Assembly: GCA_963799845.1 (NCBI GenBank)
Contig: CAWCYI010000006.1
Coordinates: 1,024,001-1,088,000 of the forward strand
Length of the DNA: 64,000 bases
DNA from: an uncultured Nitrososphaerota archaeon
GTDB taxonomy: Archaea > Thermoproteota > Nitrososphaeria > Nitrososphaerales > CADDZS01
Direction of reading: 5' to 3'
The notes beneath the pieces are model-generated. The model worked only from the letters and a program-made list of their open reading frames with translations. It did not search any database and was not told the origin of the DNA. The position numbers and the translations under genes are program-made. Positions 11,799-37,393 of the stretch are shown here, one piece after another; positions within the stretch are counted from its first letter, which is position 1; each line of letters starts with the position of its first letter.

Positions 11799-12227
11799 TT
11801 GCAATCTTCAGTTATCGTCCTTGATTCATCCGCAATTGCATCGATTTTCTTCAAAGACAAGTCTGAACAGCGTGTTGCCCAAGTTATCAAAGGATATGAC
11901 AAATTCTCAACTGTAGACGTGGCCTATGCTGGGGTTGGAAGTGTTGCTTGGAAAAGTGTGGTACTATTCAAGGAAAAGATTGAACTAAGTCATTTAGCTC
12001 CCAAGCAAGCACTAGATTTCATTCAGGATAACTGTGAGGTGGTGTCAAGCAGGGAACTCTTGAACCAAGCATTTGAACTGGGAACAAAATGCAACTTACA
12101 GATCTACGATTCCTTGTTCCTCGTTCTAGCGAAGCAATTGAGAACCAATGTTCTTACGACCGATGAGAAGTTGTGCAATAAAATAAACTCGATCAAGGAA
12201 CTGCGCGGAATTACGGTTTTACCTTGA
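11799..12227 (+). CDS. vapC: VapC PIN-domain toxin
   Basis: VLDSSA, IYDSLFL, LTTDEKL. Confidence 0.88.
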   Translation: MQSSVIVLDSSAIASIFFKDKSEQRVAQVIKGYDKFSTVDVAYAGVGSVAWKSVVLFKEKIELSHLAPKQALDFIQDNCEVVSSRELLNQAFELGTKCNLQIYDSLFLVLAKQLRTNVLTTDEKLCNKINSIKELRGITVLP

Positions 12228-13760: not shown

Positions 13761-14132
13761 TCAGATCCACTTTACGTGGGGGAGACCCCTGAAGTGCTCA
13801 TCGCTAGTACATAGCTGTATTTCGAAACGACGGGCCGTTGCATAGATCAATGCGTCTGAGAAATGAAGCCCGTACTCCAAGCTATAATCAGCCGCTTCCA
13901 GCGAAAGTGTGTCGTCAACGGGCACTACGTGAGTCTGCGTAAGTGCTGCGACATTTTCCAATGCGATTTGCTCGCCTTTTATCTTCTTTACCTTCCTGTA
14001 CACATCGTACAGCACGACTACCGATGTAACTATCTCGGCCGGTCGAGTTTGGTCTATTATCTCATTATACTTATTGGCCTTTGGGCCGTTTGTAAATCGC
14101 TCGATCCAGCCGTAACTATCGATAGCAATCAT
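13761..14132 (-). CDS. vapC: VapC PIN-domain toxin
   Basis: IDSYGWIE, FSDALIYATA, TSDEHF. Confidence 0.9.
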   Translation of the reverse strand: MIAIDSYGWIERFTNGPKANKYNEIIDQTRPAEIVTSVVVLYDVYRKVKKIKGEQIALENVAALTQTHVVPVDDTLSLEAADYSLEYGLHFSDALIYATARRFEIQLCTSDEHFRGLPHVKWI

Positions 14133-14338
14133 TCAGGATCAGTTTCATCACGGAGCTCTTTTGTATCCAATCCAGGAGTCATGCCCTTGGTTTCTTTGAG
14201 AGACCGCACTGGAATGTAGTGAAGGATTTTGTGTTTTGAAATCGCGATCATTTTGTCCCCGGGCTTGATTCCGGCCTCTTTGCGCAGCTTCTCTGGAATT
14301 ACTACTTGATACTTTTTTGATACCTTCACTGTCTCCAT
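14129..14338 (-). CDS. AbrB/MazE/SpoVT-type antitoxin
   Basis: VKVSKKYQVVIPEKLRKEAGIKPGD; 4-bp overlap with the toxin gene. Confidence 0.9.
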   Translation of the reverse strand: METVKVSKKYQVVIPEKLRKEAGIKPGDKMIAISKHKILHYIPVRSLKETKGMTPGLDTKELRDETDPE

Positions 14339-14679: not shown

Positions 14680-14892
14680 TTGGGAACGAGGAATATCTCA
14701 ATATCCGACGAGGCTTATTCTAGACTCGCCGCACAAAAGAAAGAAAACGAGAGCTTCACTGATGTAGTTAACCGATTGACTGGCAAGCGATCGATCCTGG
14801 AGCTTGCGGGAATCCTCACAAAAGCTGAGGGCAAGGAGATTGCTTCCCGTATCGAAAAAGTGAGAAGGGAAAGCCGACGGAGAATTTCTTGA
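14680..14892 (+). CDS. vapB: VapB antitoxin (DUF217-like)
   Basis: TRNISISDEAYSRL...ESFTDVVNRL signature. Confidence 0.88.
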   Translation: MGTRNISISDEAYSRLAAQKKENESFTDVVNRLTGKRSILELAGILTKAEGKEIASRIEKVRRESRRRIS

Positions 14893-15302
14893 CGGGGATT
14901 GTGAATTTTACGCTAGCAGATACTACATTTCTAATAGATCTCATGGTAAATGATCCGAATGCTCTGGAAAAGGCGACCCAGCTTGAACAAGCTGGCATAT
15001 CTATTTCCGTGGGGACGCCAACGGTCTTTGAACTGTATGTCGGCGTATCGTTGAGCAAAAAGGCCCAGAAAGAAAAATCAAAAATAATTTCGACACTTTC
15101 TGCGATGGCACAGGTCCCACTCGATCGCGAGTCAGCAATTGCCGCCGGTTCTATCTATGGAGACAAAAAGAGGATCGGCGCCACGATCGATCCCGAAGAT
15201 GCAATGCTGGCGGGCATTTCAAAGGCAAGGGGCGAGCCGGTCATTACTCGAAACCTTAAGCATTTTTCCAACATCGACGGAGTCAAGGTCGAAACTTACT
15301 GA
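14889..15302 (+). CDS. vapC: VapC PIN-domain toxin
   Basis: ADTTFLIDL, VFEL, EDAMLAG, ITRNLKHF. Confidence 0.9.
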   Translation: MTGIVNFTLADTTFLIDLMVNDPNALEKATQLEQAGISISVGTPTVFELYVGVSLSKKAQKEKSKIISTLSAMAQVPLDRESAIAAGSIYGDKKRIGATIDPEDAMLAGISKARGEPVITRNLKHFSNIDGVKVETY

Positions 15303-15654
15303 CAGCTCACTTATTCTCTTTAGATTCTCACGTGGACGCGTAAAAGGCGAGCTAGGGAAAACTGGTGAACACTTGGGCTAAAAGTAACACTTGAGAGCTT
15401 CACTCCTTTTCGATGATAACCGTCGGTACACGTACTCTACGGGTGAAATTTGTTTCGACCTTTTGAAATCCAATTTATTTTTTTAATCCTCAAAACTGAT
15501 ATTCCAAATTTTCATTGTATTTGCCAAAGCCAGAGATGTTGGGATGAGTCTTTGAACTTCAAACCGTTGATCTCTTCTGGCATCTAGTGTTTGTGTCATC
15601 CCCTTAACTTAACTACTGAAAGTAGCCTTCAAAATCAACATCGGAGTTTGTGCT

Positions 15655-16081
15655 TTGTCCGCAGATGATTCACGAATCGCTCTATTCGAAGCGATACCGC
15701 TCTTCAGGGGTCTGAGTAAAGATGAATTGAAGGAAGTTTCGGACGGCTCTAAGGAAATGAGCTTTCAAACTGGAAACGCGATAGTCAAAGAGGGAGATTC
15801 GGGCCTGGGATTCTACATCATGGTAGACGGAGAGGCCGTTGTGAAGCGCAAGGGCAAGACGCTGTCCAAATTGAAAAGGGGAAGTTTCTTCGGCGAAATG
15901 GCGCTCATCGATGATCAGCCGAGATCGGCCGATGTTGTCGCGACGGAGCCAACAAAGTGCTTCGTTTTGATGAGATGGAATTTTTGGTCAATTGTCTCGA
16001 AGAAGCCCATGATAGACTCGCGGACTGCTTCAAGAGATGGCGCGACGCGTGCGAGCAACGAACAAAGCATTGACTGACTAG
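15655..16081 (+). CDS. Stand-alone cyclic nucleotide-binding (Crp/cNMP) domain protein
   Basis: IVKEGD, FFGEMAL, PRSADV; removing one base in TAGACT 16013-16018 restores the typical helix ARGLLQEMARRVRATN ending at TAG 16079-16081. Confidence 0.9.
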
Positions 16082-16159
16082 CGCCGGAAGCTCCGAATTA
16101 CAAAGAGATAGCTCTGAAAAAAGTTAAGACACCCAGAGCTTCGTTCCTGATCGCAGCAG

Positions 16160-18838
16160 ATGTCCGTTCGTTCGGTTGACTTGAGTTCATTTTATGAGCT
16201 TCTATACAATCCCGGCTATGCACCCGAGCGATCGCCAAAAGGGCATATTGAGAACCTGACCGTGGACGGGAAACCCGCCTTCATTTTGATGAATGAGGGA
16301 ACCGGGCAGTACTTCGAAGTGGATGAGACAACCAACGCCATCTGGAACCTGATGAATGGCAAGAACACACTAAACCAGATCTACGAAGAAGCAGTAAAAT
16401 TGGACGATTCCCTCACCGAAAAGGAAGTCAAGGATATCGTTGTTTCTTTTGCTGAAGAAGGTCTGGTAGAGTCAACCGAGCCTGAAGTCGAAGAAAAAAG
16501 GGTCAGAATAGTATCGGCGTTTCAGCTCGACATCAGTCTCTTGAAAGACTGCTCGAAGACACTTTCCGGATTTTTCAAAGTGACTCGCAAGTTGATCAAA
16601 AAACCGGAACTCTGGATCGCCATCGGAATCGTTATCGTGGGCTCCGTGCTTTTTGTTGGGAGCTTTTTACAGATTTTCTCAAACCCGAGCGATTTCGCTG
16701 TCCTCGGTTCGATCCTGCTCGGCTTGTTTTTTTATGATTCGATAATACTTTTGCCTGTATATCTGATTCACGAGCTTGCGCATGCTGTGGCGTGCGATTA
16801 TTACGGCGGAAAGCCTCGCGAAATTGGAACTGGTCTGTACTATCTCACTCCATTCTTTTACTGCGACACCTCCGACTCCTGGAGACTGGGAAGAAGGGCT
16901 AGGATAATGATATCCATCGCTGGACCTCTATCGACGTTGGTTATAGGATCGCTTTTCGTCTTTGCCACATATTTCCTCCCTCCCGGGTTTAGCAGAAACG
17001 TGCTTCAGATTTCGGCCTTTTTCTGTTTCTACGGGACCCTCATCAACTTCTCACCCTTTATCGAAACAGATGGCTACTACATAATTTCAGACATTTTGAA
17101 TATTCCTAACTTAAGAGACGAATCTTTCAGATATCTGAAAACAAAATTGTTAGGCCTTCTTGGTAGACCCGTAACTCAAGCGAGGTACAGCAAAGCTAAG
17201 AAGCGGATTTTTCTGATTTTTGCCCTCATCAGCTTCGGTTGGCTCTTATTCTTCGGCTATACCACGATCCGCTTGACATATCTCTATGGTCAAGACGCCT
17301 ACCGTGCGTTGTTAAATCTGCTCGAGACTTTGTTTAGACTACACCCCTTCAGCCTGACCGCGGTCGTTGTAAGTGCGGCAGCGGTGACTTACTTTGCACT
17401 CCTAGTGTCTGGATATTTCGTGATGGGAGTCGTAGGTTACAAGAAATTGCAAATGGGAAAGGTGAAGCTAGAGACAATCCATGACAAAAGGGTAGCGATT
17501 TTCCTTCCACTTCCGGCCTTTCTTCAACGTGATCAGGTTGCGGAACTTCTCAGCAACGCCAAGAAGATATCTCGCAAGTTCTCTCGCTCTTTTTCAGTCA
17601 TATGGGAGCCGCCGCTTAGCGTTGTCAGCATGAAACTTGGTAAAGTGGATCAAAGCCTGGACGATCTACGAAAGGATATGCTCACCGTAGAGCAATCATT
17701 CAAATCAGCACACAATAGTTTTCTTTCAAAAAAATTGAACAACTTCTTGACGGAAGGAGCTGATAGCAAGAAAATAGTTCGCGAGTATCTTAACGAGCTG
17801 GCAGATCAATTTCCCCCCTTTGAGCGGAGTGTCACTGTCCGGCAAGTTCCAAGGTTTCTCAAAGAGCAAAATGCACAGATTAGTTATCTTGTCCGGTCGG
17901 CGTTTGGGACTGTCTGGACACTGGAGCTGCCACCAAAAGATTACTCCAGATTAAGGCGCGATCTGTTCCCAAGCTTAATTGCCGAAGACCTTGCAGTGAT
18001 CGAGTCTGAAAGTGGACTCGAACACTTCAAAATTCATACCGTTTTCGGCTTGGATGCGTTAGCCAAGCTCTCTTTTGAAATCGAGAAAGATGTGAGTCAG
18101 GTTTACAGGCGGCCCGAGGTCTATCAAGCTACAGCCTTTATCGAACCGATCAGGAGCAGCCTAGTCTTCGTCGGAAGAACTGAAGGAGTGGAAGGCTCGA
18201 CAGTTTGGCTGGGCGGCCTGTTTCTGTATCAGGCCTGGGTCGGATATATCAGCGAGATTTTGTATGAATCCACGCTCGGATTAAGGTCAATCAGGCAAGC
18301 CCAATCTCACTCGTTCACGAAATCCCAAATGGCGAAACTCCTGGATCTGGAGATTGAAAAGCTGAGAAAAGACATGGATCAACTAAAGGGTCTGAAGAGA
18401 GCAGTCGACGCGTCCGTTGACAGGATAAGGAGCACTTTTCAGAGCGCAAGAAATTTTCACGATTCTCTCGTTTCCCTGCTCACCCAACAGAACTTCGACG
18501 TTGGATTGTACAGGCCCATTCTTACGACAAATGAAGACCGCCTGGCTAACGTCAAAGAGAAGATCCAGATGTTTCAAGATGAGTTCAACGGGGTGCTCGA
18601 CCTACTAGGCAAGATTACCGAAACGATTGACGAACTGTATGTGAAAAGGCAAGCTAATCTGCAAGATTCTACCGCGAAGAAAACTGGATATAGTGATTCT
18701 ATTTTCTCAAAGCTTCATATCGGCAACAAACCAGAGTCGTACCAACATACACCACCGTACGATTCCGCTGTCAAAGTATTATTCGCCACAGCTCGCTTGA
18801 CGTACAATGTCGTCCTTGTCAGTGATATTGTAATATGA
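16160..18838 (+). CDS. PqqD/RRE domain plus M50 intramembrane zinc peptidase with long C-terminal helical region
   Basis: N-terminal GQYFEVDETTNAIWNLMNGKNTLNQI...EEGLV; HELAH zinc motif; FYCDTSDSW, IAGP, NFSPFIETDGYY; multiple TM segments; heptad-like tail. Confidence 0.88.
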   Translation: MSVRSVDLSSFYELLYNPGYAPERSPKGHIENLTVDGKPAFILMNEGTGQYFEVDETTNAIWNLMNGKNTLNQIYEEAVKLDDSLTEKEVKDIVVSFAEEGLVESTEPEVEEKRVRIVSAFQLDISLLKDCSKTLSGFFKVTRKLIKKPELWIAIGIVIVGSVLFVGSFLQIFSNPSDFAVLGSILLGLFFYDSIILLPVYLIHELAHAVACDYYGGKPREIGTGLYYLTPFFYCDTSDSWRLGRRARIMISIAGPLSTLVIGSLFVFATYFLPPGFSRNVLQISAFFCFYGTLINFSPFIETDGYYIISDILNIPNLRDESFRYLKTKLLGLLGRPVTQARYSKAKKRIFLIFALISFGWLLFFGYTTIRLTYLYGQDAYRALLNLLETLFRLHPFSLTAVVVSAAAVTYFALLVSGYFVMGVVGYKKLQMGKVKLETIHDKRVAIFLPLPAFLQRDQVAELLSNAKKISRKFSRSFSVIWEPPLSVVSMKLGKVDQSLDDLRKDMLTVEQSFKSAHNSFLSKKLNNFLTEGADSKKIVREYLNELADQFPPFERSVTVRQVPRFLKEQNAQISYLVRSAFGTVWTLELPPKDYSRLRRDLFPSLIAEDLAVIESESGLEHFKIHTVFGLDALAKLSFEIEKDVSQVYRRPEVYQATAFIEPIRSSLVFVGRTEGVEGSTVWLGGLFLYQAWVGYISEILYESTLGLRSIRQAQSHSFTKSQMAKLLDLEIEKLRKDMDQLKGLKRAVDASVDRIRSTFQSARNFHDSLVSLLTQQNFDVGLYRPILTTNEDRLANVKEKIQMFQDEFNGVLDLLGKITETIDELYVKRQANLQDSTAKKTGYSDSIFSKLHIGNKPESYQHTPPYDSAVKVLFATARLTYNVVLVSDIVI

Positions 18839-18955
18839 CAAGCGGGCGGGCTCAGCACTTTATTTCGGGATATCTTCCTGTGAGAATGGGGCGTTCTTGA
18901 AAGTAACCAATCTTTGGGGAAGGGTAAAAACTTCGATACGGAGTTTTAACTTTCT

Positions 18956-19150
18956 TCAATGAACCAGACTTTCCTTGAGACAAGCCAAGATGAGTAAGAT
19001 TTTTGCGCAGGTTACAAGAAACGCGAAAAAGAAAAAGAAACGGAGAGACGTACGTCGTCCCTCCGTGATACGCCGAGCGATTGCTAACGTAGGCCTTTTA
19101 CGGACTTGTTCTGTCTTTTCTTTCAGCTTCTTGATTCTTTTTTCAGCCAT
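18956..19150 (-). CDS. 64-aa peptide with basic leader and hydrophobic Cys-containing C-terminus; candidate precursor
   Basis: MAEKRIKKLKEK...RRTSL-RFFFFFAFLVTCAKILLILAC; TATA-like GATATATT about 40 nt upstream; an antisense ORF of similar size also exists. Confidence 0.5.
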   Translation of the reverse strand: MAEKRIKKLKEKTEQVRKRPTLAIARRITEGRRTSLRFFFFFAFLVTCAKILLILACLKESLVH

Positions 19151-19344
19151 TTCTTAATTCAGCGAGCTTACAAGATACACCCGTGAAATATATCTGCTCC
19201 TACCACTGGCGAAACTGAGCAGTAGTAAAAATTTGGCTCTGCCAATCTGGCCAGAATTAGAATGCATATATTCGATGCGTTATTTCACAAACGAGTAGCC
19301 GGACATTCTTTATCCATTGGCGCTAGGAGATTGATCTACAGCTG

Positions 19345-20548
19345 TTGTCCTCATTCGCATCGGCGGAAGATCTGGTACCTCTCTTTCATCAACTAGGGCT
19401 TAATCTCTACGAATCCAAGGCGTACGCCACCCTACTTGCAAAAGGGCATGTCTCTCCGAGGGAGCTTGGCGGGTTGACATCCATCCCCCAAAGCAGAACT
19501 TACGACACTCTCTTGAGCCTGAAGGGGAAGGGTTTTGCCCTAACCACTCCTTCATCGTCGATGGCGGTCTACACAGCCGCTGATCCTTCGAAGCTCCTCT
19601 CAAGCCTATACTCAAAGAAAAGGAAAGAGATCCAGGAACAAATGATAAAGCTCCACGAGGAAACGGAACGTAAGCTCGAGACTCTCTACGATGTCTATTC
19701 ACAGGCATTGGAGAAGGTCGCTTCACTTTCTGAACAACGGCCAGCCCAGATTGCAACCGAGCCCGTCTTTGTAATCGAGGGCAACGACAACATCGAGAAT
19801 GCCATGCTGACAATGATAGGCAAGGCGGAGAAGGAGTTTCTTCGAATCACAAGGCCTCCATCGATCGGGAAGTGGATGTTTGACCCTTTTTACTTCACGA
19901 AAGGACGAACATCTGGCCGTCTGAACGAAGCGCGAGAGCGGGGAGTAGCAATTCGAACGCTCAGTTTACCGAGCGAGATTCCCTCGCTGCTAGGATTACA
20001 TATCGAAGTCGAAGAATTCAAGGAAAGGAGGTATCTTGACAAGGCCGACGACATTTACGAAAAATTTATTCTCGTGGACGAACGGATTGCACTTCTCAAT
20101 CTCAGAGATCCTGTATCGAAGACTTTCGGCTCTATTGCGCTCATGATTGAATCAAAGCCGACATGCTCGATTCTTAAGCAACACTTCGAGGTAATGTGGA
20201 AAAAGGGGAACAACGTTTCAAACATAGTGAAAAGAATGAATGAAGCAACAATAGAAGCGTGTCTCGCGATGAGGGAGACAGATTTTCCCAAACTAGAATG
20301 CGCGATATACAAAATCCTTGCAAATGAAGGCGCGATGGATGAAGACTCCCTTGCAACTCGGCTCGCGGTAAGGGGTCGAACCTTGACGGAAGTTCATCAA
20401 GTCTATCAAAAAACTCGACAAGCGAGGTTTCCTACTTGGAAGCGATTCGCCAAAGCTTGTAATGGCAGAGAACCCTCTGAAGCTCCTTTCGGATCTTGGT
20501 CGCAAGAGGACTCGAAGCACAGCGAGTTCAAAGAAGGTGAGAGGTTAG
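19345..20548 (+). CDS. TrmB family transcriptional regulator with probable second C-terminal HTH
   Basis: LGLNLYESKAY, IPQSRTYDTLLSL, KFILVDER; +1 shift near 20388 gives FIKSIKKLDKRGFL...ENPLKLL ending at TAG 20548. Confidence 0.85.
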
Positions 20549-20604
20549 ACAGAAAAGTCGATTCTACTGATAGATGCTCTGAAAAGATAACTCGAGTTAA
20601 TTCA

Positions 20605-20976
20605 GCTAAGAATTATTCTTTGAAAGCTCAGCAGTAATTCCCGCGGCGGTCATTTCAATGCCCTCGGCAGGGTGATCGCCAACTACTCATGCATCATGTC
20701 CCGGTGGCACAGAACACACGTCCCCTGGTCCGCTTTCAAATTCGGTTCCGTCTTTCAGCTTCCAGTGTAACCTACCCGAAATCTGATATTGAAGGTGGGA
20801 AACCTCGCACCACTCTGTCTTGACTATCGGCTTAATATCACTCGACCATCTCCACCCCTTTTGAGCTACAAACCTGGCTACTTTCATGCGTCCGACGTTA
20901 ACCAGTTCTATCTTTGCGCGCTCCATTTCTCTATCTCTTTCGAGTCTGAAACATTCTTCTGCTCATAGCTAGGCAT
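20605..20976 (-). pseudogene. Cupin-domain protein pseudogene
   Basis: GWRWSSDIKP, CEVSH, SGRLH, PPGHDA*VVGD (TGA where Trp is expected) plus an N-terminal frameshift. Confidence 0.8.
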
Positions 20977-21128
20977 GGCGCATCTCTCTCAATGCCATTT
21001 TTGTTTTTGTCTTGTTGTTCGTCATTCATCAAACAACAGCGTGTATTAGGGGTCGGGTCCAGTTAGTCTAAGAAAAGCATGAGGCAGAGATTGGCAAGGT
21101 CCCCAAGGGAGCAGGTATTTATGGAAGG

Positions 21129-21359
21129 TTGATGCCAGAAAATGGTAGAACGCGCTTGACAACCTTCCGATCGGAAACCGGGTTTTTTGTTTTCTACTCC
21201 GTACTCGGCTTTTGTTTTGTCTGCGTTCCCGTTGAAGCAATCGGGAAAGCTGTGGGCATGAGCATTGAAACTCTTCTCATCACGTTGCTGGCATTCACAA
21301 TCGGATCAGCAACGTTGCTCAGCATGAATTCGCACGCTGCAGCGAAAGAAGAACCATAA
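21129..21359 (+). CDS. Small two-TM hypothetical protein
   Basis: Two hydrophobic segments in 76 aa. Confidence 0.4.
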   Translation: MMPENGRTRLTTFRSETGFFVFYSVLGFCFVCVPVEAIGKAVGMSIETLLITLLAFTIGSATLLSMNSHAAAKEEP

Positions 21360-21559
21360 CGCCAAATGAAAGTTATACCATTAGAAGGATCCTTTGCGAA
21401 GTCTTCCGTGATGAAAATTGCTTCTCGTCGAGAAAGTCGATCACCGAAGCACTGTGTATGAGTAACTACTCAGCGACTAACATCGATTCGAGCGACAGAT
21501 GCATAAATAGGTAGAGCAAATTCTCTAAACTTTTTTCAGTCCTTTTAATACCAGTTCCC

Positions 21560-27200: not shown

Positions 27201-28324
27201 ACCTGGCCGACATAAGTTCATAGACACCTGTTGGTCAGAAGGAATTTCTTCATGTCAAGATGCGAGCAAAACCTTCGCGTTCGATAGTATTCTGCCAGGA
27301 TTGATTTCAGTTCTTTCAATGACGTCGGAAAGGTTGGAAGCCTTGAGAGATCCTTCTCACCCTCGCGCCAACACTCCTCCATCATGTTGAACTCTGGCGA
27401 AGCTGTCGGGATCCATCTGACTCTGAGAGTCTTCCTGTTCTTACCCAAATAATCAGTTACGATCCTGGTTTTGTGGTGTTGCCTTGCTTTGTCAAGGAAG
27501 AGATAGAGTGATCCAAACTTCCTGTGCACCTTCTTCAGGTAGTCGAGGAATGTCTCGCCATTGAATTTCTCGTACTGCCTGAAGATTTGTGTCCCGTCCA
27601 GGCTGATCGCTCCAAACACCACGGTGTTGCCGTGCGAGCCTGACACAATCCGAATCGGTCGAATCCCTTTGACCGCCCACACCCTTTTGGTTTCTATGTT
27701 CTGGACGAAGATTGATTCGTCTTCGGATGCTACGGTGAAGCCTTCCGGGATATTCCTGAGGAGTCTTGCGGTCCTTTTTTAAATTCGAGCCTCTCTTCGA
27801 GGGAAGCCTTGTGAAGTAACCTCTTGTCAGGGACAATTGCTCTCACTCCCCACTTCTGCATCAACCTGTAGATGTGTCTCTCAGTGTATGCCACGTCTGC
27901 TTCCTTGCGGATCATCTCCCTGACCTCCTTCACGGTCCAGCCGCATTCGTTCTTCACGACCTTCCTCTTCACCGCAATGAACTTGTTGTGATCGAGCTTC
28001 GGAGGTCTCCCGCTCCTTTCCATCGTCTTGAGTCCTTCTAGCCCATCTTTCTCGAAACGTCTAAGCCACGGTGTCGTCCATGATTTGTGCCGGTGAACTT
28101 CCCTTGCTACGTGCGACGCCGGGACACCCTCGTACTTGACCTTCAGAACGAGGAATATCCTCTTGCTTACGTTTGCGTCCCTCTCCTCTCTATAAGCCTC
28201 TTCAACAATCTCCTTCGGTGCCTGTAATCGAGACATACAACCTGAGATAGGAAGGGAAGTTGGCCAAAAATGAGAATGTCTAGGTCTGTGGCCCTTTCAG
28301 TCTAATAATTTATGTCGGCCAGGT
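27201..28324 (-). mobile_element. IS630 family insertion sequence, complete
   Basis: 15-bp perfect terminal IRs ACCTGGCCGACATAA (27201-27215, 28310-28324); TA duplication at 27199-27200 and 28325-28326 within a CTAG target. Confidence 0.95.
27218..28236 (-). CDS. IS630 transposase in two ORFs joined by a -1 shift
   Basis: OrfA HTH (SGRPPKL, WTVKEV); OrfB DDE (SEDES, FLDKARQH, SPEFNMMEECW); A6 run TTTAAAAAAGG at about 27773-27783. Confidence 0.92.
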
Positions 28325-28420: not shown

Positions 28421-29014
28421 CTACACCCTAGTAATTGAGGAGATCCAAGCGCGCCCTCCATCCTTATGGAAGTTGGTTTCGAAGCGAGCATCTTTGATGT
28501 AATTTATCGACCAACCCCCGGAAAAGCTCTCTTCAATTTCTAGTCTAGTGACCCGCCTTGGTCCTCCCCAGCTTAAAGGTTCAAGATCGCTGAAACAAAG
28601 CATGAAGTATTTTCCATTCACAGTAAGGACGGATCGAATGCTCCTTACGAATTTTCGACGCTGGATATCCGTGAATGTGTGAAACAGCCCGCAGTCGATC
28701 GCGTTGTCAAAACTCCTCCTCAATTCTGAAAGATCAAGTGCGTCCGCAGTTTCGAAGGTCACGTGCTTGATTTCGCGCTCTCTTGCTTTCTCCTTGGCTT
28801 TCTGTATCGCCCTCGTCGATGAATCCACACCGACGACGTCGTGCCCACGAGATGCGAAAAAAAGCGAATTCTCTCCGGTTCCGCAGCCAACATCCAGCAC
28901 CGAGCCTTTGACTTCGCCATTCCGTTCCAGCAGCACAAATTCCCTTTGAGGGCGGCCGATGTCCCAGGGAGGAGTGCCTCTGTAGGACTCGTCAAATTCG
29001 TTCGTTGCTTGAAT
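28421..29014 (-). CDS. Class I SAM-dependent methyltransferase
   Basis: VLDVGCGTG, GVDSS, DCGLFH; conserved PPWDIGRPQ lies in frame upstream of the listed GTG. Confidence 0.9.
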   Translation of the reverse strand: MQATNEFDESYRGTPPWDIGRPQREFVLLERNGEVKGSVLDVGCGTGENSLFFASRGHDVVGVDSSTRAIQKAKEKAREREIKHVTFETADALDLSELRRSFDNAIDCGLFHTFTDIQRRKFVRSIRSVLTVNGKYFMLCFSDLEPLSWGGPRRVTRLEIEESFSGGWSINYIKDARFETNFHKDGGRAWISSITRV

Positions 29015-30845: not shown

Positions 30846-33283
30846 TCATTGCAGTTGATTTTTCTGTTCAGAAGCGGATGAAACTTCAACTTCGTAATCC
30901 TTGCCCTCCCACGAATTGCGTGATTTCCAGAAGAAAGTGAATCTGATCGAGCTGACATAGATCATTTATTTCGGAAGTTGGAATATCTACGTAGTCGACT
31001 CCCAACCTGGTCGATTGGGAATCGGAATCGAAGATAGTTGTCCAGTCATCTGGAGACCAGTGGAGTCGGAAGACTTCCGATGCCTGAACCCTCAATATCG
31101 TTCCCCCTTTGACGGAAGCCGGTTGCCGTCTATGTTTCCATATCTCAATTTGAGGTCCAAGCCCTCTGGATGTTATGTACCTCTCGGCAACTTCGGGGAT
31201 AAGGTCGAAGACCGCTCCGTCGCTTGCGGACCTCAGAAGCTTGATGTATTCCGCATGCGCCCACACCAGCGGCTTTACCGAACCCGTTGATCGCCCAAAT
31301 CTCATATGAGTTTCCCGGATATCTTCAGAGTCCCACACCTGCTCCGGCAGATGAGCTGTCGCTGAGGCAAACTTTTCCATCGTTTCAACGTATGGTTTGG
31401 CATCGTTTCCCGCCGCCAGCTCGTAATGTCCTCTTTCTCCAGTCAGTAGTGGCCATAACCTTCCCCGTCCCCATCCGTCAAATGGAGACCCGTCGTCCTT
31501 CTGGCCGTACCCGTCGAAATTATACCTGTGCCAGCAGGGGCCGAATGGGGTGTCGGTCTTCAGAACGGCGTCCACCACCTTGAGGGAGTCGACTATCAGT
31601 TTGTCATTCGGCGATCGAATTCCGTATCTTACTAGCTCGAGAAACCCTGGATCCACGATGTCCCTCGCGGGGTACTCATGCCTTCCCCACGCCGGCTGAT
31701 TGGCGAGTGTCAGGACTCCTTCATTCGGATCTTCGTTTGGCGTAGGATCGTTGACATCAATTGGATTTATCCGGATGTAGTGGTTTGTTATCCCTGGCAC
31801 GAGCGACCCCATCGTCGTACAAGTCCATGCTTCAATGTGAGATTCTAGAAAATCCGCGTATTCCTCCAGATACTTTCCGGTCTCATCGTCTCCGCGACCG
31901 CGGGCAAACTGGGCCGCGCAGATCAGCGCAGCGATGTTCGTCGCCAGTGTAGACGGAGAATAACCGCTTGCCTCTTCCCATCTGTCCTGTTGGGTTACGG
32001 GACCCATCTTTACCAGGAAGCTTGCTGCCCTAATGACTCCCTCATACGGATCGCAAGATTGGAGGACTTGGGCTTTGTGCATCCGCCATGCGAGTATTAT
32101 TGGGAAGGCAACCTCATCCAATTGGATCCCGCCCCAGTATGTTTGTCCATCTATCCAAAAGTTCTGAGGGTACCCGCCGTCCTCAAGCTGACTGGTAGAT
32201 AGGTAGATCAGAGATCGCAGAGGAGTGTCAATATTTCCCGCCGCAAGCAGAGCGCTTGCGCTGTTGACCATGTCTCTTGTCCAGACGAGGTGGTAGCCGC
32301 CCTTGTCCTCGTCACCCTTTGACTCCCCCCAAGGGATGGACATAGAGGCAATGATAGCACCAGGGTACGTCTTGTCTTCATGAGCTGAGGATCACACTGT
32401 AGCTCGTTCGGTACAGATTCCCAGAGTCTCCTGATGCCCTATTCAAATCGAGCAAACGCTGGTATGGACGATCCCATTGTTCAAGGAATCGCATTCGATG
32501 ATCTGTGAATGGGAGACCTAGGGACTGGAGAAGAGTTGTAACCGCACTGTGGAGGCTGTCTCCCAGAGCGATCCCTAGAGTAAATTCTCCATCGTTTTTC
32601 TCAAAATCCACCTCGCCCATAAGAGCGACGTTTCCATTGAGGGCAGTATCAAACTCCCAATCCATCTTGAAATTTTCATTGAGGTCAGTCCATCCATCGC
32701 TCGCCCCAACATAACCGCAGGATAATCGCTTGAATGAAACTGTAGCGCACATGGCGAGCCACGTTCCATTTTTCTCCGCGACAAAAAGCTCTCGACCTGC
32801 TACTCTTGCAACGTAAGCATTGTTTCCTGATCCCCCTCCATCCAAGTGTGGAGCGCAGAGTGCGTAGAGATGTAAATCGGAGCTAAAGTCCTCTGAAATT
32901 TCAAATCTAGTATTCTGAAGAATACAAGGGAGATGTGGATCGGCTATTATCTCCTTTCTGATCCTATATCGTCCCCGCGGATCTGAATTGGTTATCCTGT
33001 AGCCGAGATCTCGACGCTCCAATCTTTCGATTTCGGTTGTCAGGACTCGCTTTTCCTCGTCAAAAAAAGTGGATTCGTCGCTCACGAGATACTCCATATC
33101 TCGAAGTTGCGGTCGATCAACTGTGGGATAATATGCCTCAGTCAGTGTTCCGCGCCAAACCGTAAACCAGATCCTGCTATCCGCCGAATAAGCGGTTCCC
33201 ACACCGTCCTTGTTCCCCCGGGTCCACTTGGGTGGTATTCCAGGAGTTCCAAACGCGTTCACGTCCCCGCGAAAACTTGTCAT
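30846..33283 (-). CDS. GH15 glucoamylase / glucan 1,4-alpha-glucosidase with glucodextranase-like N domain
   Basis: KDGVGTA, SIPWG, YHLVWTRD, QLDE, QDRWEE, LPEQVWD, PLVWAHAEY; single-base removals at AGCTGA 32383-32388 and 30950-30955 restore AHEDKTYPGA and IRFTFFW..WEGKDY. Confidence 0.93.
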
Positions 33284-35923: not shown

Positions 35924-37393
35924 GTAACCATTTAGCGTTTTGAAGTAATCGGCCGAAAGCTATTTGGCCAAGATTCTCCATTGAACTTTCCGTAAGCCTT
36001 TGTCTTCGATTGACGATGAACCAAGTAATCTTCCCGAATACTACCAAAGTCAAATCGATGAACTTGAAGAACAAAACAGACTCCTGAAGGAGGAGAATAA
36101 ACAGCTCAAGGAGGAGCTTGCCTCCCTCAAGACAACGCTTGGGGCAGTTGTTGCAAGGAGCATAAACGCAAAGAAGGACACTCCCGCGACCTTTACTACA
36201 ACCACCTCCGATAACAGAAAGTACCACAAGAAATCTGGGAGAAGAAAAGGTCACGAAGGCGGGACGAGAAGAAAGCCAGACCACGTTGATCATACAATGG
36301 AACTGGATCAAACTGTATGCCCCAAATGCGGAGGAGTCCTCTCAGAAAAACCTACAGACAAATACGAAAGATTTGTCGAAGATGTCGTTCCCGCAAGATT
36401 GGTTGTAACAAGATACGTAATTAAGAGGAGATATTGCTGCGGATGCAGGAGACAGATCTCTCCTGAAGTGCCCAATGTCCTCAGCAACGAGCGATTCGGG
36501 CTCAGACTGATGCTCCTTATAGTTTCGCTCAAATTGCTGGGGCTGTCGTACGCAAAAATCACCTCACTATTCAAGCTCATCTTCAATCTTGAGATGAGTG
36601 AGGCTTCGGTGGAGCACTCTGTGATGAAGGTTGCAGAAGCATTCGGTCCGCGTTACAGTGATCTCATCTCAGAAGTGAGAAATGAAAAGAGTCTGCATGG
36701 CGATGAAACAAGCTGGAGGATCAAGGGAAAGAACCACTGGCTCTGGACGTTTGTGGGCAAATGGTCGGTTATCTACGAGGTGGCAAGATCTCGAGGCAGC
36801 GAGGTTCCCATAAAGGTACTTGGTAGAGACTACGCTGGGACCGTGATAAGCGATTCATGGCCGGCATGGAACTACGTTGGAACAAAACACCAGAGATGCC
36901 TTCTGCACTACCTCCGTGATATAGAAGACACCCAGATCTATAAGAGACCGGGAAAAGAATTCACACCGTTTTCAAAGAAACTCAAACGCATACTGAATGA
37001 CGCGATAAAAGTTGGAAAGAGCGTGAATGGAAAGAGGGATCGCCTAAGAGCCAAGAAGAGGTTTGAAGCGAGGGTCGAGAAAATTAACGCATCGTATTCG
37101 ACCGTGGATGAGACAAACTGCATGCGGTTTGTCAAGCGTCTGAGAAGAGAGAAGGGAATGCTGTTCACGTTCCTTGAAGAGCTTGGAGTTGACTGGAACA
37201 ACAATACAGCGGAGAGAGCAATAAGACCAAGCGTTGTCATTAGAAAGATAACCTACGGCAACCAATCGATGGAAGGAGCAGATGCACACAAAGTGTTGAT
37301 GAGCGTGAAAGAGACGTGCAGGCTGAGAGGATTGAACTTTTACGATTATGCCATGAACTATCTAAATCCAGCTTCAAAAAGCTAAACGGTTAC
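35924..37393 (+). mobile_element. IS66 family insertion sequence, single-ORF (ISBst12-like) type, complete
   Basis: 22-bp terminal IRs GTAACCATTTAGCGTTTTGAAG with 2 mismatches; 8-bp target duplication CTTCATTC at 35916-35923 and 37394-37401. Confidence 0.95.
36000..37385 (+). CDS. IS66 transposase
   Basis: Coiled coil, GHEG, CPKCG zinc finger, GDETSW, SDSW, QRCLLH, NNTAERAIR. Confidence 0.95.
   Translation: MSSIDDEPSNLPEYYQSQIDELEEQNRLLKEENKQLKEELASLKTTLGAVVARSINAKKDTPATFTTTTSDNRKYHKKSGRRKGHEGGTRRKPDHVDHTMELDQTVCPKCGGVLSEKPTDKYERFVEDVVPARLVVTRYVIKRRYCCGCRRQISPEVPNVLSNERFGLRLMLLIVSLKLLGLSYAKITSLFKLIFNLEMSEASVEHSVMKVAEAFGPRYSDLISEVRNEKSLHGDETSWRIKGKNHWLWTFVGKWSVIYEVARSRGSEVPIKVLGRDYAGTVISDSWPAWNYVGTKHQRCLLHYLRDIEDTQIYKRPGKEFTPFSKKLKRILNDAIKVGKSVNGKRDRLRAKKRFEARVEKINASYSTVDETNCMRFVKRLRREKGMLFTFLEELGVDWNNNTAERAIRPSVVIRKITYGNQSMEGADAHKVLMSVKETCRLRGLNFYDYAMNYLNPASKS

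Follow-up and report, generated by a model that had tools for sequence, protein, structure and literature searches.

To our knowledge, peptide-processing and peptide-signalling systems are almost all bacterial, and the substrates of archaeal site-2 proteases are essentially unknown. Classical site-2 proteases such as MjS2P, SpoIVFB and RseP have PDZ or CBS domains and act by cutting regulators that are anchored in the membrane. The only architecture like the one described here that we know to have been characterised by experiment is the daptide pathway: a recognition element (RRE) for RiPPs (peptides made by ribosomes and modified after their translation) is fused N-terminally to an intramembrane site-2 protease that removes the leader, and genes for a DUF-RRE protein, an oxidative decarboxylase, an aminotransferase and a methyltransferase occur in the neighbourhood (10.1101/2023.03.08.531785). 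Here we describe a locus on a 64,000-nucleotide (nt) stretch of DNA from an uncultured Nitrososphaerota archaeon (the window, in whose numbering all coordinates are given), which pairs, in a concrete case open to testing, a tiny peptide and an RRE-protease of archaea. The module, at 15655-20637, comprises a stand-alone cyclic nucleoside monophosphate (cNMP)-binding protein, an RRE-M50 protease with a family-specific C-terminal domain, a 21-codon micro-open reading frame (micro-ORF) and a TrmB-family transcription regulator. We show which genes belong to the set, that they are conserved, what folds and motifs they encode and how far the peptide gene truly extends, and we give about an even chance to the reading that this is a conserved four-gene archaeal module in which the RRE-site-2 protease processes micro-peptides under cNMP and TrmB control.

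The window protease has the N-terminal architecture of the daptide protease MpaP/DapP (NF041824), in which the M50 core with its HExxH comes after a PqqD-type RRE, and NF041824 (daptide_HExxH) is its best curated match (E 5.6e-53, residues 40-367), although its 180.4 bits lie below the cut-off of 300 bits for membership. Daptide and archaeal loci are also alike in that precursor genes, putative ones in the archaea, are encoded nearby. The archaeal protease differs in an extra C-terminal domain of 450 amino acids (aa) and in its archaeal hosts, and its peptides are polybasic, either 17-26 aa long or composed of a leader plus repeats, whereas daptides have hydrophobic helical cores ending in Thr. 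In Pfam scans of the window ORFs at 466-41073, we could assign no match to the daptide-modifying enzymes (DUF-RRE, oxidative decarboxylase and aminotransferase), and the window's nearest methyltransferase gene (28421-28936) lies ~8 kb off across other genes.

Other described systems share smaller parts of this architecture. YydH/LiaK (NF058609), an M50 metalloprotease that matures a small ribosomal peptide, is similar to the window protease over the HExxH region (E 2.7e-11, with 43.6 bits far under the 225 cut-off); in contrast to that system, the window protease has neither a radical-SAM epimerase gene nor an ABC transporter gene next to it, and the substrate type differs. Bacterial RRE-M50-HlyD fusions (P0101-P0120, called "putative peptide zinc metalloprotease protein" by one source) are homologous through the RRE and M50 core over ~350 columns (hhalign probability 100, E 2.2e-42), but their C-terminal half is an HlyD-type adaptor (PF16576, PF13437) or, in P0119, a pair of cNMP-binding domains fused behind the M50 core, and we find no relation between the archaeal C-terminal domain and these HlyD-fused relatives (hhalign probability 1.1). 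The classical site-2 proteases MjS2P, SpoIVFB and RseP share the M50 catalytic motifs and a weak fold match with the window protease, which, unlike them, carries an RRE and a new C-terminal domain and has no membrane-anchored regulator encoded beside it. Finally, bacteriocin-type transport cassettes, which, to judge from the name of the model TIGR03896 (cyc_nuc_ocin), place a small cNMP-binding protein beside peptide-processing or export genes, have in this model a weak match to the window cNMP protein (E 1.7e-7; 30.9 bits, below the 161 cut-off), and no ABC/HlyD exporter is found here. The open-access literature that we searched holds nothing on the archaeal RRE-M50 family, its cNMP/TrmB context, RiPPs in Bathyarchaeia or the tandem-repeat genes described below. 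The system is a variant of the RRE-fused site-2 leader peptidases, and four things in it are new: the C-terminal domain of 450 aa, the association with cNMP and TrmB proteins, the micro-peptides, and the genes that join a leader to repeats.

The RRE-fused site-2 protease

The protease gene (16160-18838, + strand) encodes 892 aa, and an AlphaFold2 model of the entire protein has a mean predicted local distance difference test (pLDDT) score of 80.8. Its N-terminal PqqD-like RRE domain (16160-16495, +; residues ~1-112) matches PqqD PF05402 in Pfam over residues 42-102, with 29.3 bits vs a gathering cut-off of 23.4, and adopts in the model a winged-helix fold with strands at 28-35, 38-45 and 50-54 and helices at 56-64, 71-81 and 87-99, which is the three-stranded sheet followed by three helices of solved RREs. 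Foldseek pairs the domain with the leader-bound RREs of TbiB1 (5v1v) and lasso B1 (6jx3), with the RRE-leader complex 5v1u and with PqqD 5sxy, at probability 1.0 and template-modelling (TM) scores of 0.61-0.68. The domain is net acidic, with 23 D+E vs 8 K+R in residues 1-112. A further motif, Y..xYNPxYxPxxS, precedes the RRE proper at residues 12-26 (16193-16237), and its Y12, Y16, P18, P22 and S25 are at least 90% conserved across 31 sequences.

The M50/site-2-protease membrane core follows (16580-17461, +; residues ~141-434), with HELAH at 204-208 and NxxPxxxxDG at 296-305, and both motifs sit within hydrophobic segments in the hydropathy profile. In a 31-sequence alignment of homologues, H204, E205, H208, N296, P299, D304 and G305 are invariant, as are several residues of the C-terminal half of the protease. 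The core reaches 20.0 bits against M50 PF02163, below the gathering threshold of 27.2; despite this sub-threshold score, we classify it from sequence and fold comparison as a divergent M50 member, because homologues in the database carry precomputed PF02163 matches and Foldseek yields matches, albeit weak, to MjS2P 3b4r (E 3.3e-3) and SpoIVFB 8vjl (E 1.2e-2). Hydropathy also reveals approximately six hydrophobic segments, with K/R-rich loops on the same side as the HExxH and NxxP motifs, and this arrangement therefore suggests that the RRE and the C-terminal domain are both cytoplasmic.

The conserved C-terminal domain of ~458 aa (17462-18835, +) is built from beta-alpha-beta elements and long helical hairpins, and these 458 residues fold confidently on their own in AlphaFold2 (pLDDT 87.7, predicted TM score 0.86). 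The domain has no Pfam or NCBIfam family match, no convincing match in the PDB (Foldseek best E 0.02; VIA best Z 8.9, to helical bundles) and no usable match in a search of the ESM Atlas. A profile of the domain run against 1.84 billion representatives retrieves 67 proteins at E <= 0.001; the strong matches are full-length proteins of ~910-965 aa that carry the domain at residues ~435-935, or shorter ORFs covering part of it, and the weakest (E > 1e-7) are short partial alignments in unrelated long proteins.

A database search finds 141 relatives of the 892-aa protease at E <= 0.001, ~100 of them full-length (850-960 aa), and the source names among them are Nitrososphaerales, Thaumarchaeota and one Atabeyarchaeia (Asgard) genome. 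We fetched 112 related loci, retained the 109 in which the protease ORF is intact (L017, L024 and L094 were dropped), and find that loci and window together collapse to 93 groups at >=97% protein identity. With the window excluded, the distinct loci are 24 of a Nitrososphaerales type, 4 other thaumarchaeal, 6 of a short form (a protease of 429-456 aa without the C-terminal domain), 3 Asgard and 55 of a Bathyarchaeia type. The pair L004/L006 is counted by hand as Nitrososphaerales type; the script had placed it with the Bathyarchaeia type at its 46% identity threshold. An original prediction, made from the letters of the window, had described four ORFs here, and an ORF listing of the window locates all of them where they were drawn; three of the four (cNMP protein, protease and TrmB) are real, conserved genes. 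What it had read in the protease also holds up: the PqqD/RRE-like N-terminus passes the PF05402 cut-off and matches leader-bound RREs, the M50 motifs are intact with catalytic residues invariant in the 31 homologues, and the ~450 unexplained C-terminal residues are a conserved domain that matches no family or fold.

The micro-peptide gene

The fourth ORF was first drawn as a 64-aa frame (18956-19150, - strand) with a basic leader and a hydrophobic core. We find no homologue of this product by tblastn in the 112 related loci or in the organism's own genome, where the frame matches only itself, and it has no Pfam or NCBIfam match. Among four public sequencing runs compared, only X1 and X2 cover the critical site, and the Logan contigs of both omit one letter at 19124, which is equivalent to one base of the T-run 19121-19123. 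Because both contigs omit this letter, we regard the extra base as an assembly error, or at best a minority variant, and the 64-aa frame as an artefact of a one-base insertion in the assembly. Minus the extra base, the reading leaves the 64-aa frame after codon 9 or 10, continues in a second frame and stops at 19084-19086, giving a micro-ORF of 21 codons (19084-19150, -), whose second frame holds the remainder of the peptide motif discussed below. A stretch of 30 nt within the 64-aa ORF (19105-19134) matches four places in three loci at 93% identity, and the ORFs at those places are tiny. The single contig of RNA run X5 spans 18843-19031 only, outside the micro-ORF.

The FFFFF "hydrophobic core" is a terminator-like hairpin and its T-rich tail read out of frame. 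This hairpin (19040-19066, -) lies 18 nt past the micro-ORF stop and has 11 pairs, 7 of them G-C, followed by the T-rich tail TTCTTTTTCT, and a stretch of 106 nt that holds the hairpin (19066-19040) has a folding energy of -31 kcal/mol with a z-score of -3.58. The "basic leader", in turn, corresponds approximately to the whole micro-ORF product, a predicted 21-aa strongly basic peptide. The small-peptide gene of the original prediction thus fares in two ways: a gene does exist at that spot, from a family that recurs beside the protease, but it is not a 64-aa hydrophobic precursor. The 64-aa product, on whose conservation the prediction had been staked, is conserved neither in the 112 loci nor in the genome, and the comparison with YydH, which rested on cleavage of a hydrophobic precursor, loses its basis because the peptide is a basic 21-mer that has no hydrophobic core. 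A single homopolymer assembly error produced a plausible-looking hydrophobic precursor. We accordingly regard a 64-aa precursor of basic leader and hydrophobic core, cleaved YydH-style by the RRE-M50 protease, as almost certainly wrong and already contradicted: its ORF is open in the assembly as given and the protease does resemble YydH/LiaK, but the ORF ends at 21 codons in the contigs of two runs, its product is without homologues, all family members measure 17-26 aa, and its hydrophobic part coincides with the hairpin and T-tract.

Motif and profile searches of the loci define a family of basic micro-peptides, 17-26 aa long, with the motif [VI]-K-K-L-K-x-R-x-x-K and variable tails, and the L, R and K within the motif are invariant in their alignment. 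As judged by codon usage, the peptide motif is under selection at the amino-acid level: the invariant Arg is written as AGA, CGA, CGC, CGG or CGT and the invariant Leu as CTG, CTC, CTA or TTG, with codon-position entropies in the micro-ORF of 0.99 (third), 0.60 (first) and 0.47 (second), though this evidence is partly circular in that the blocks were selected by peptide pattern. A strict motif search returns 18 micro-ORFs (16 distinct peptides) in the related loci, with every occurrence lying in such a micro-ORF, and zero occurrences in the six frames of the organism's own 4.6-Mb genome. A profile built from the motif micro-ORFs adds copies in more loci and matches the window at 19087-19122 (-), in the alternative frame (E 0.028). 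After profile filtering, the micro-ORF is present in 16 of the 24 distinct Nitrososphaerales-type loci, with a weak match in L052/L053, and in all four other thaumarchaeal loci; the seven Nitrososphaerales-type loci with no match are L060, L041, L043, L037, L003, L007 and L004/L006, and in most of these the usual site just past the TrmB stop falls off the contig. Several loci (L002, L044, L011 and L059) carry two to three copies, with three in L059. Among the 13 genomes of the organism's own taxonomic family, the profile reaches E < 1e-3 only in G410 and G411, which are the two other holders of the protease; E is 0.14 for the copy in the window, with its frameshift, and 0.9 in one further genome. 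When 11 micro-peptides and repeat precursors were compared with Pfam and NCBIfam, the only matches were low-complexity ones below threshold.

The micro-ORF has no single fixed place: it can follow TrmB, lie in the interval that separates TrmB from the protease gene, or converge on the latter from its downstream side (window, L045 and L011), and the linkage of micro-ORF and protease persists through these changes in gene order. This bears on the possibility that the product acts independently of the protease, as a small basic protein that binds nucleic acids or, within the TrmB operon, as a translated element acting in cis, with shared TrmB regulation accounting for the linkage. Consistent with such independence, most Nitrososphaerales-type micro-ORFs start 35-85 nt past the TrmB stop on the same strand, so that the tightest link is to TrmB, and the peptide is polybasic like many nucleic-acid binders. 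However, short-form loci have no TrmB match and carry a related micro-ORF directly upstream of the protease gene, the micro-ORF adjoins the protease 3' end in L045, L011 and the window, a leader-repeat gene accompanies the Bathyarchaeia protease where TrmB is missing, and the peptide profile scores well only in protease-holding genomes; independence of the two genes therefore seems to us distinctly improbable.

Partner genes in different lineages

The partners of the protease are lineage-specific. In the Nitrososphaerales type they are a receptor for cNMP, cyclases of class III and a TrmB-like regulator; in Bathyarchaeia they are another winged-helix regulator, a protein resembling AbrB and genes for a leader plus tandem repeats. 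The cNMP gene (15655-16077, +; 140 aa) matches PF00027 (E 1.1e-17, 64.2 bits vs the 27.5 cut-off), and its product contains a visible FGE..RSA stretch that we take to be the phosphate-binding cassette motif. In 22 distinct loci of the Nitrososphaerales type the available sequence extends 600 nt or more upstream, and 20 of these have the cNMP gene upstream of the protease, in 19 on the same strand within 400 nt; in the short-form loci it lies directly downstream of the protease in 6/6. The cNMP gene originally predicted here is thus a conserved partner and not a chance neighbour, and the same is true of the predicted TrmB regulator, whose extent required correction: the end first given, 20548, is 89 nt short of 20637.

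Genes for class III cyclases are found within 6 kb of the protease in 7 of the 24 Nitrososphaerales-type, 2 of the 4 other thaumarchaeal and all 6 short-form loci. The organism's own 4.6-Mb genome gives 24 PF00211 class III cyclase matches, many in ORFs of ~650-700 aa (e.g., C4:530926 and C6:965696), and this is a large expansion of cyclic-nucleotide signalling, with zero of the 24 adjacent to the module. The related-locus cyclases that were scanned carry tetratricopeptide repeats (TPRs). In the short-form loci, class III cyclase-TPR genes are present in 6/6 and a metallo-beta-lactamase-fold gene in 4/6; past the cNMP gene, L025 (7867-9317), L023, L027 and L113 encode a conserved 188-aa protein together with this metallo-beta-lactamase-fold protein, which may be a cyclic-nucleotide phosphodiesterase, given a weak Apyc1-like match (E 1.4e-4). 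The genome also encodes a second stand-alone cNMP protein (G000:C4:345000-345452; L122 6000-6452) that is 49.5% identical to that of the window, and we rejected it as a protease partner: it adjoins a major facilitator superfamily transporter and oxidoreductases, and no M50 gene.

The TrmB-family gene (19345-20637, +; 430 aa) matches PF01978 (E 3.7e-15, 56 bits vs 25.6) through an N-terminal winged helix-turn-helix. It stands outside the sugar-sensing TrmB/TrmBL1/TrmBL2 group, with a best score of 57.4 bits vs the 530 cut-off among the NCBIfam TrmB/TrmBL equivalogs, and the protein is soluble, with no hydrophobic segment. A TrmB-like gene occurs in 19 of the 24 distinct Nitrososphaerales-type loci and in 3 of the 4 other thaumarchaeal loci. 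It usually lies upstream of the cNMP gene and diverges from it; in the window it is downstream of the protease. The spacer between the divergent micro-ORF and TrmB gene (19151-19344) presumably holds both promoters, and an A/T-rich, TATA-like box can be read by eye in it ~40-46 nt upstream of the micro-ORF ATG. On the other side, a terminator-like hairpin 3' of the protease gene (18927-18947, +) has 9 pairs followed by a T-rich tail and is a consensus match only.

In Bathyarchaeia, where a different winged-helix regulator replaces TrmB, a gene convergent behind the protease (occasionally upstream) encodes a conserved leader with K-[IV]-[FY]-P-K-L followed by tandem basic repeats of 4-8 aa. The repeat units vary by locus and include APAK/APAR, ARPK/ARPQ, TMKP, TRAS, ARTN, ATGR, GLGAKS, RGELKP, KERVTA, KARTQI, LARLDTKT and KAATV. 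Of the 31 distinct Bathyarchaeia loci whose sequence runs on for 350 nt or more downstream, 27 have this leader-repeat gene, which the automatic score recognised in 24 and inspection by eye in 3; the four where we did not find it are L022, L091, L109 and L103. Counted over all 55 loci, the gene is present in 32. The leader profile is fitted by 21 segments at E <= 1.3e-8. Both the micro-peptides and these Bathyarchaeia genes present what is expected of precursor genes, namely a conserved leader and a variable core beside an RRE protein. The other partners in the 55 loci are a divergent winged-helix protein (50), an AbrB/MazE-like protein of 69 aa (33), a TPR protein of 1100 aa (22), a 98-aa membrane protein termed C20 (17) and a 147-aa protein (14). 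The C20 family is not confined to Bathyarchaeia loci, because a small membrane protein of this family is also encoded on L124 (G410:C31), a contig separate from that genome's protease contig, together with a micro-ORF and a TrmB-like gene.

The C20 protein is a candidate for another kind of substrate, in that the protease could carry out regulated intramembrane proteolysis of a protein such as C20, in which case the micro-peptide would be a regulator or pseudo-substrate, or would inhibit the protease while bound to the RRE. The classical targets of site-2 proteases are transmembrane segments, and the core has the MjS2P and SpoIVFB fold matches; the conserved ~98-aa C20 is encoded near the protease in 17 Bathyarchaeia-type and 2 other thaumarchaeal loci and adjoins the TrmB-like gene and micro-ORF in G410, and the micro-peptide itself has no hydrophobic stretch. 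We nonetheless think this rather unlikely, since two C20 queries find no such protein in the window's genome, the TrmB-like regulator offers no hydrophobic segment, among curated families the first 370 residues of the protease are closest to leader peptidases, and the multicopy peptide genes and leader-repeat genes resemble precursor genes, not regulators.

Proposed peptide processing and the surrounding genes

Under the reading that we prefer, in which the micro-peptides are the substrates, the acidic RRE would dock the motif [VI]-K-K-L-K-x-R-x-x-K in much the same way that RREs dock leaders in the bacterial leader peptidases of RiPPs, and the protease core would then cut the peptide and release its short, variable C-terminal part. 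In Bathyarchaeia, cleavage of the leader and the tandem 4-8-aa basic units would free many short peptides. The cNMP protein would couple cleavage to the cyclic AMP or cyclic GMP that the numerous class III cyclases encoded in these genomes produce; in the short-form clade and in that of the Nitrososphaerales type, this input would arrive via the receptor encoded next to the protease. The TrmB-like protein would control transcription of the gene set. We favour RRE-guided processing because the protease shares the daptide RRE-protease core, because small genes with a conserved motif and a variable tail, often multicopy, persist beside the protease, and because the RRE is acidic (23 D+E vs 8 K+R) and the peptides polybasic. 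We infer the binding of peptide to RRE, the cleavage, the cNMP gating and a signalling role for the products, with the substrate and the gating read from gene context. A complex prediction that paired the L049 RRE domain (115 aa) with its 35-aa micro-ORF product gives scores of 0.04 and 0.11, relative to a mark of 0.32.

Several observations weigh against peptide processing or narrow its reach. Site-2 proteases and their known RRE-fused relatives act on hydrophobic or amphipathic substrates, and the micro-peptide, polybasic and with no hydrophobic segment, would be an unusual one; its processing by the protease and its binding by the RRE are proposed from homology, gene context and charge. Runs X1 and X2 come from one study, perhaps from the assembly's source sample, and so correct the assembly but do not stand for independent populations. 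The codon evidence for the micro-ORF is partly circular, as said above. The micro-ORFs directly upstream of the protease gene in 6/6 short-form loci match weakly (E 0.019 to 3.4), and motif-bearing ORFs ~3 kb from the Asgard protease gene (E 0.48-1.9) are too weak to count. The protease is patchily distributed, being held by 3 of the 13 genomes of the organism's own taxonomic family and by 0 of 400 other sampled genomes of the class, a sample of mostly small, ammonia-oxidiser-type genomes that indicates patchiness and not absence.

The cyclic-nucleotide part of the proposal is limited further, and the points against it belong with those above. L037 and L051 have no cNMP gene despite enough upstream sequence, and no cyclase gene is found near the module in the Pfam scan of window ORFs at 466-41073. 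The cNMP protein was not found in any of the four remaining thaumarchaeal loci, nor was its gene noted next to the proteases of the Bathyarchaeia type, so that any cNMP control would be confined to certain clades. The same scans reveal no modifying enzyme, exporter or immunity gene adjacent in the window, in agreement with the original prediction, which had reported no modifying enzyme or exporter next to these genes, and because of this the module is not a strict RiPP cluster. No recognised modification enzyme, as a RiPP cluster would contain, is found in the window or among the conserved neighbours, though some unrecognised activity may reside in the fold-unmatched 450-aa C-terminal domain.

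If the peptides prove to be substrates, RRE-guided proteolysis would be extended to archaea, together with a new style of precursor, polybasic and tandemly repeated, and cyclic-nucleotide signalling would be tied to peptide maturation. A broader reading is archaeal ribosomal-peptide signalling, in which the RRE-site-2 protease, facing the cytoplasm and bearing its unique 450-aa domain, would turn polybasic micro-precursors in Nitrososphaerales and multicopy tandem-repeat precursors in Bathyarchaeia into short cationic signals under a cyclic-nucleotide gate, in TACK and possibly Asgard archaea. We hold this broader reading as tentative and lean against it; if true, it would mean a peptide-based signalling pathway in these archaea.

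The surroundings of the module hold further features. Three PIN-domain toxin genes (11799-12227, 13761-14338 and 14680-15302) lie directly upstream, the second and third adjoining antitoxin genes (MazE/AbrB-like and VapB-like), a sign of a variable genome region. Insertion-sequence genes are found at 27218-28236 and 36000-37385, and comprise a DDE_3 transposase with a helix-turn-helix ORF in IS630 style and an IS66-family transposase. An Rfam scan of 15000-21500 returns a single match, at chance level. Downstream of TrmB, a 79-aa cupin-like fragment (20687-20926, -) resembles Cupin_2 only weakly (E 0.01) and may be what is left of a gene. A glucoamylase gene appears split (30886-33283, -), with a Glucodextran_N ORF at 32378-33283 and a GH15 ORF at 30886-32343 that are 35 nt apart; in view of the single-base indel in the T-run 19121-19123, the split may reflect a further indel of the assembly and not a pseudogene.

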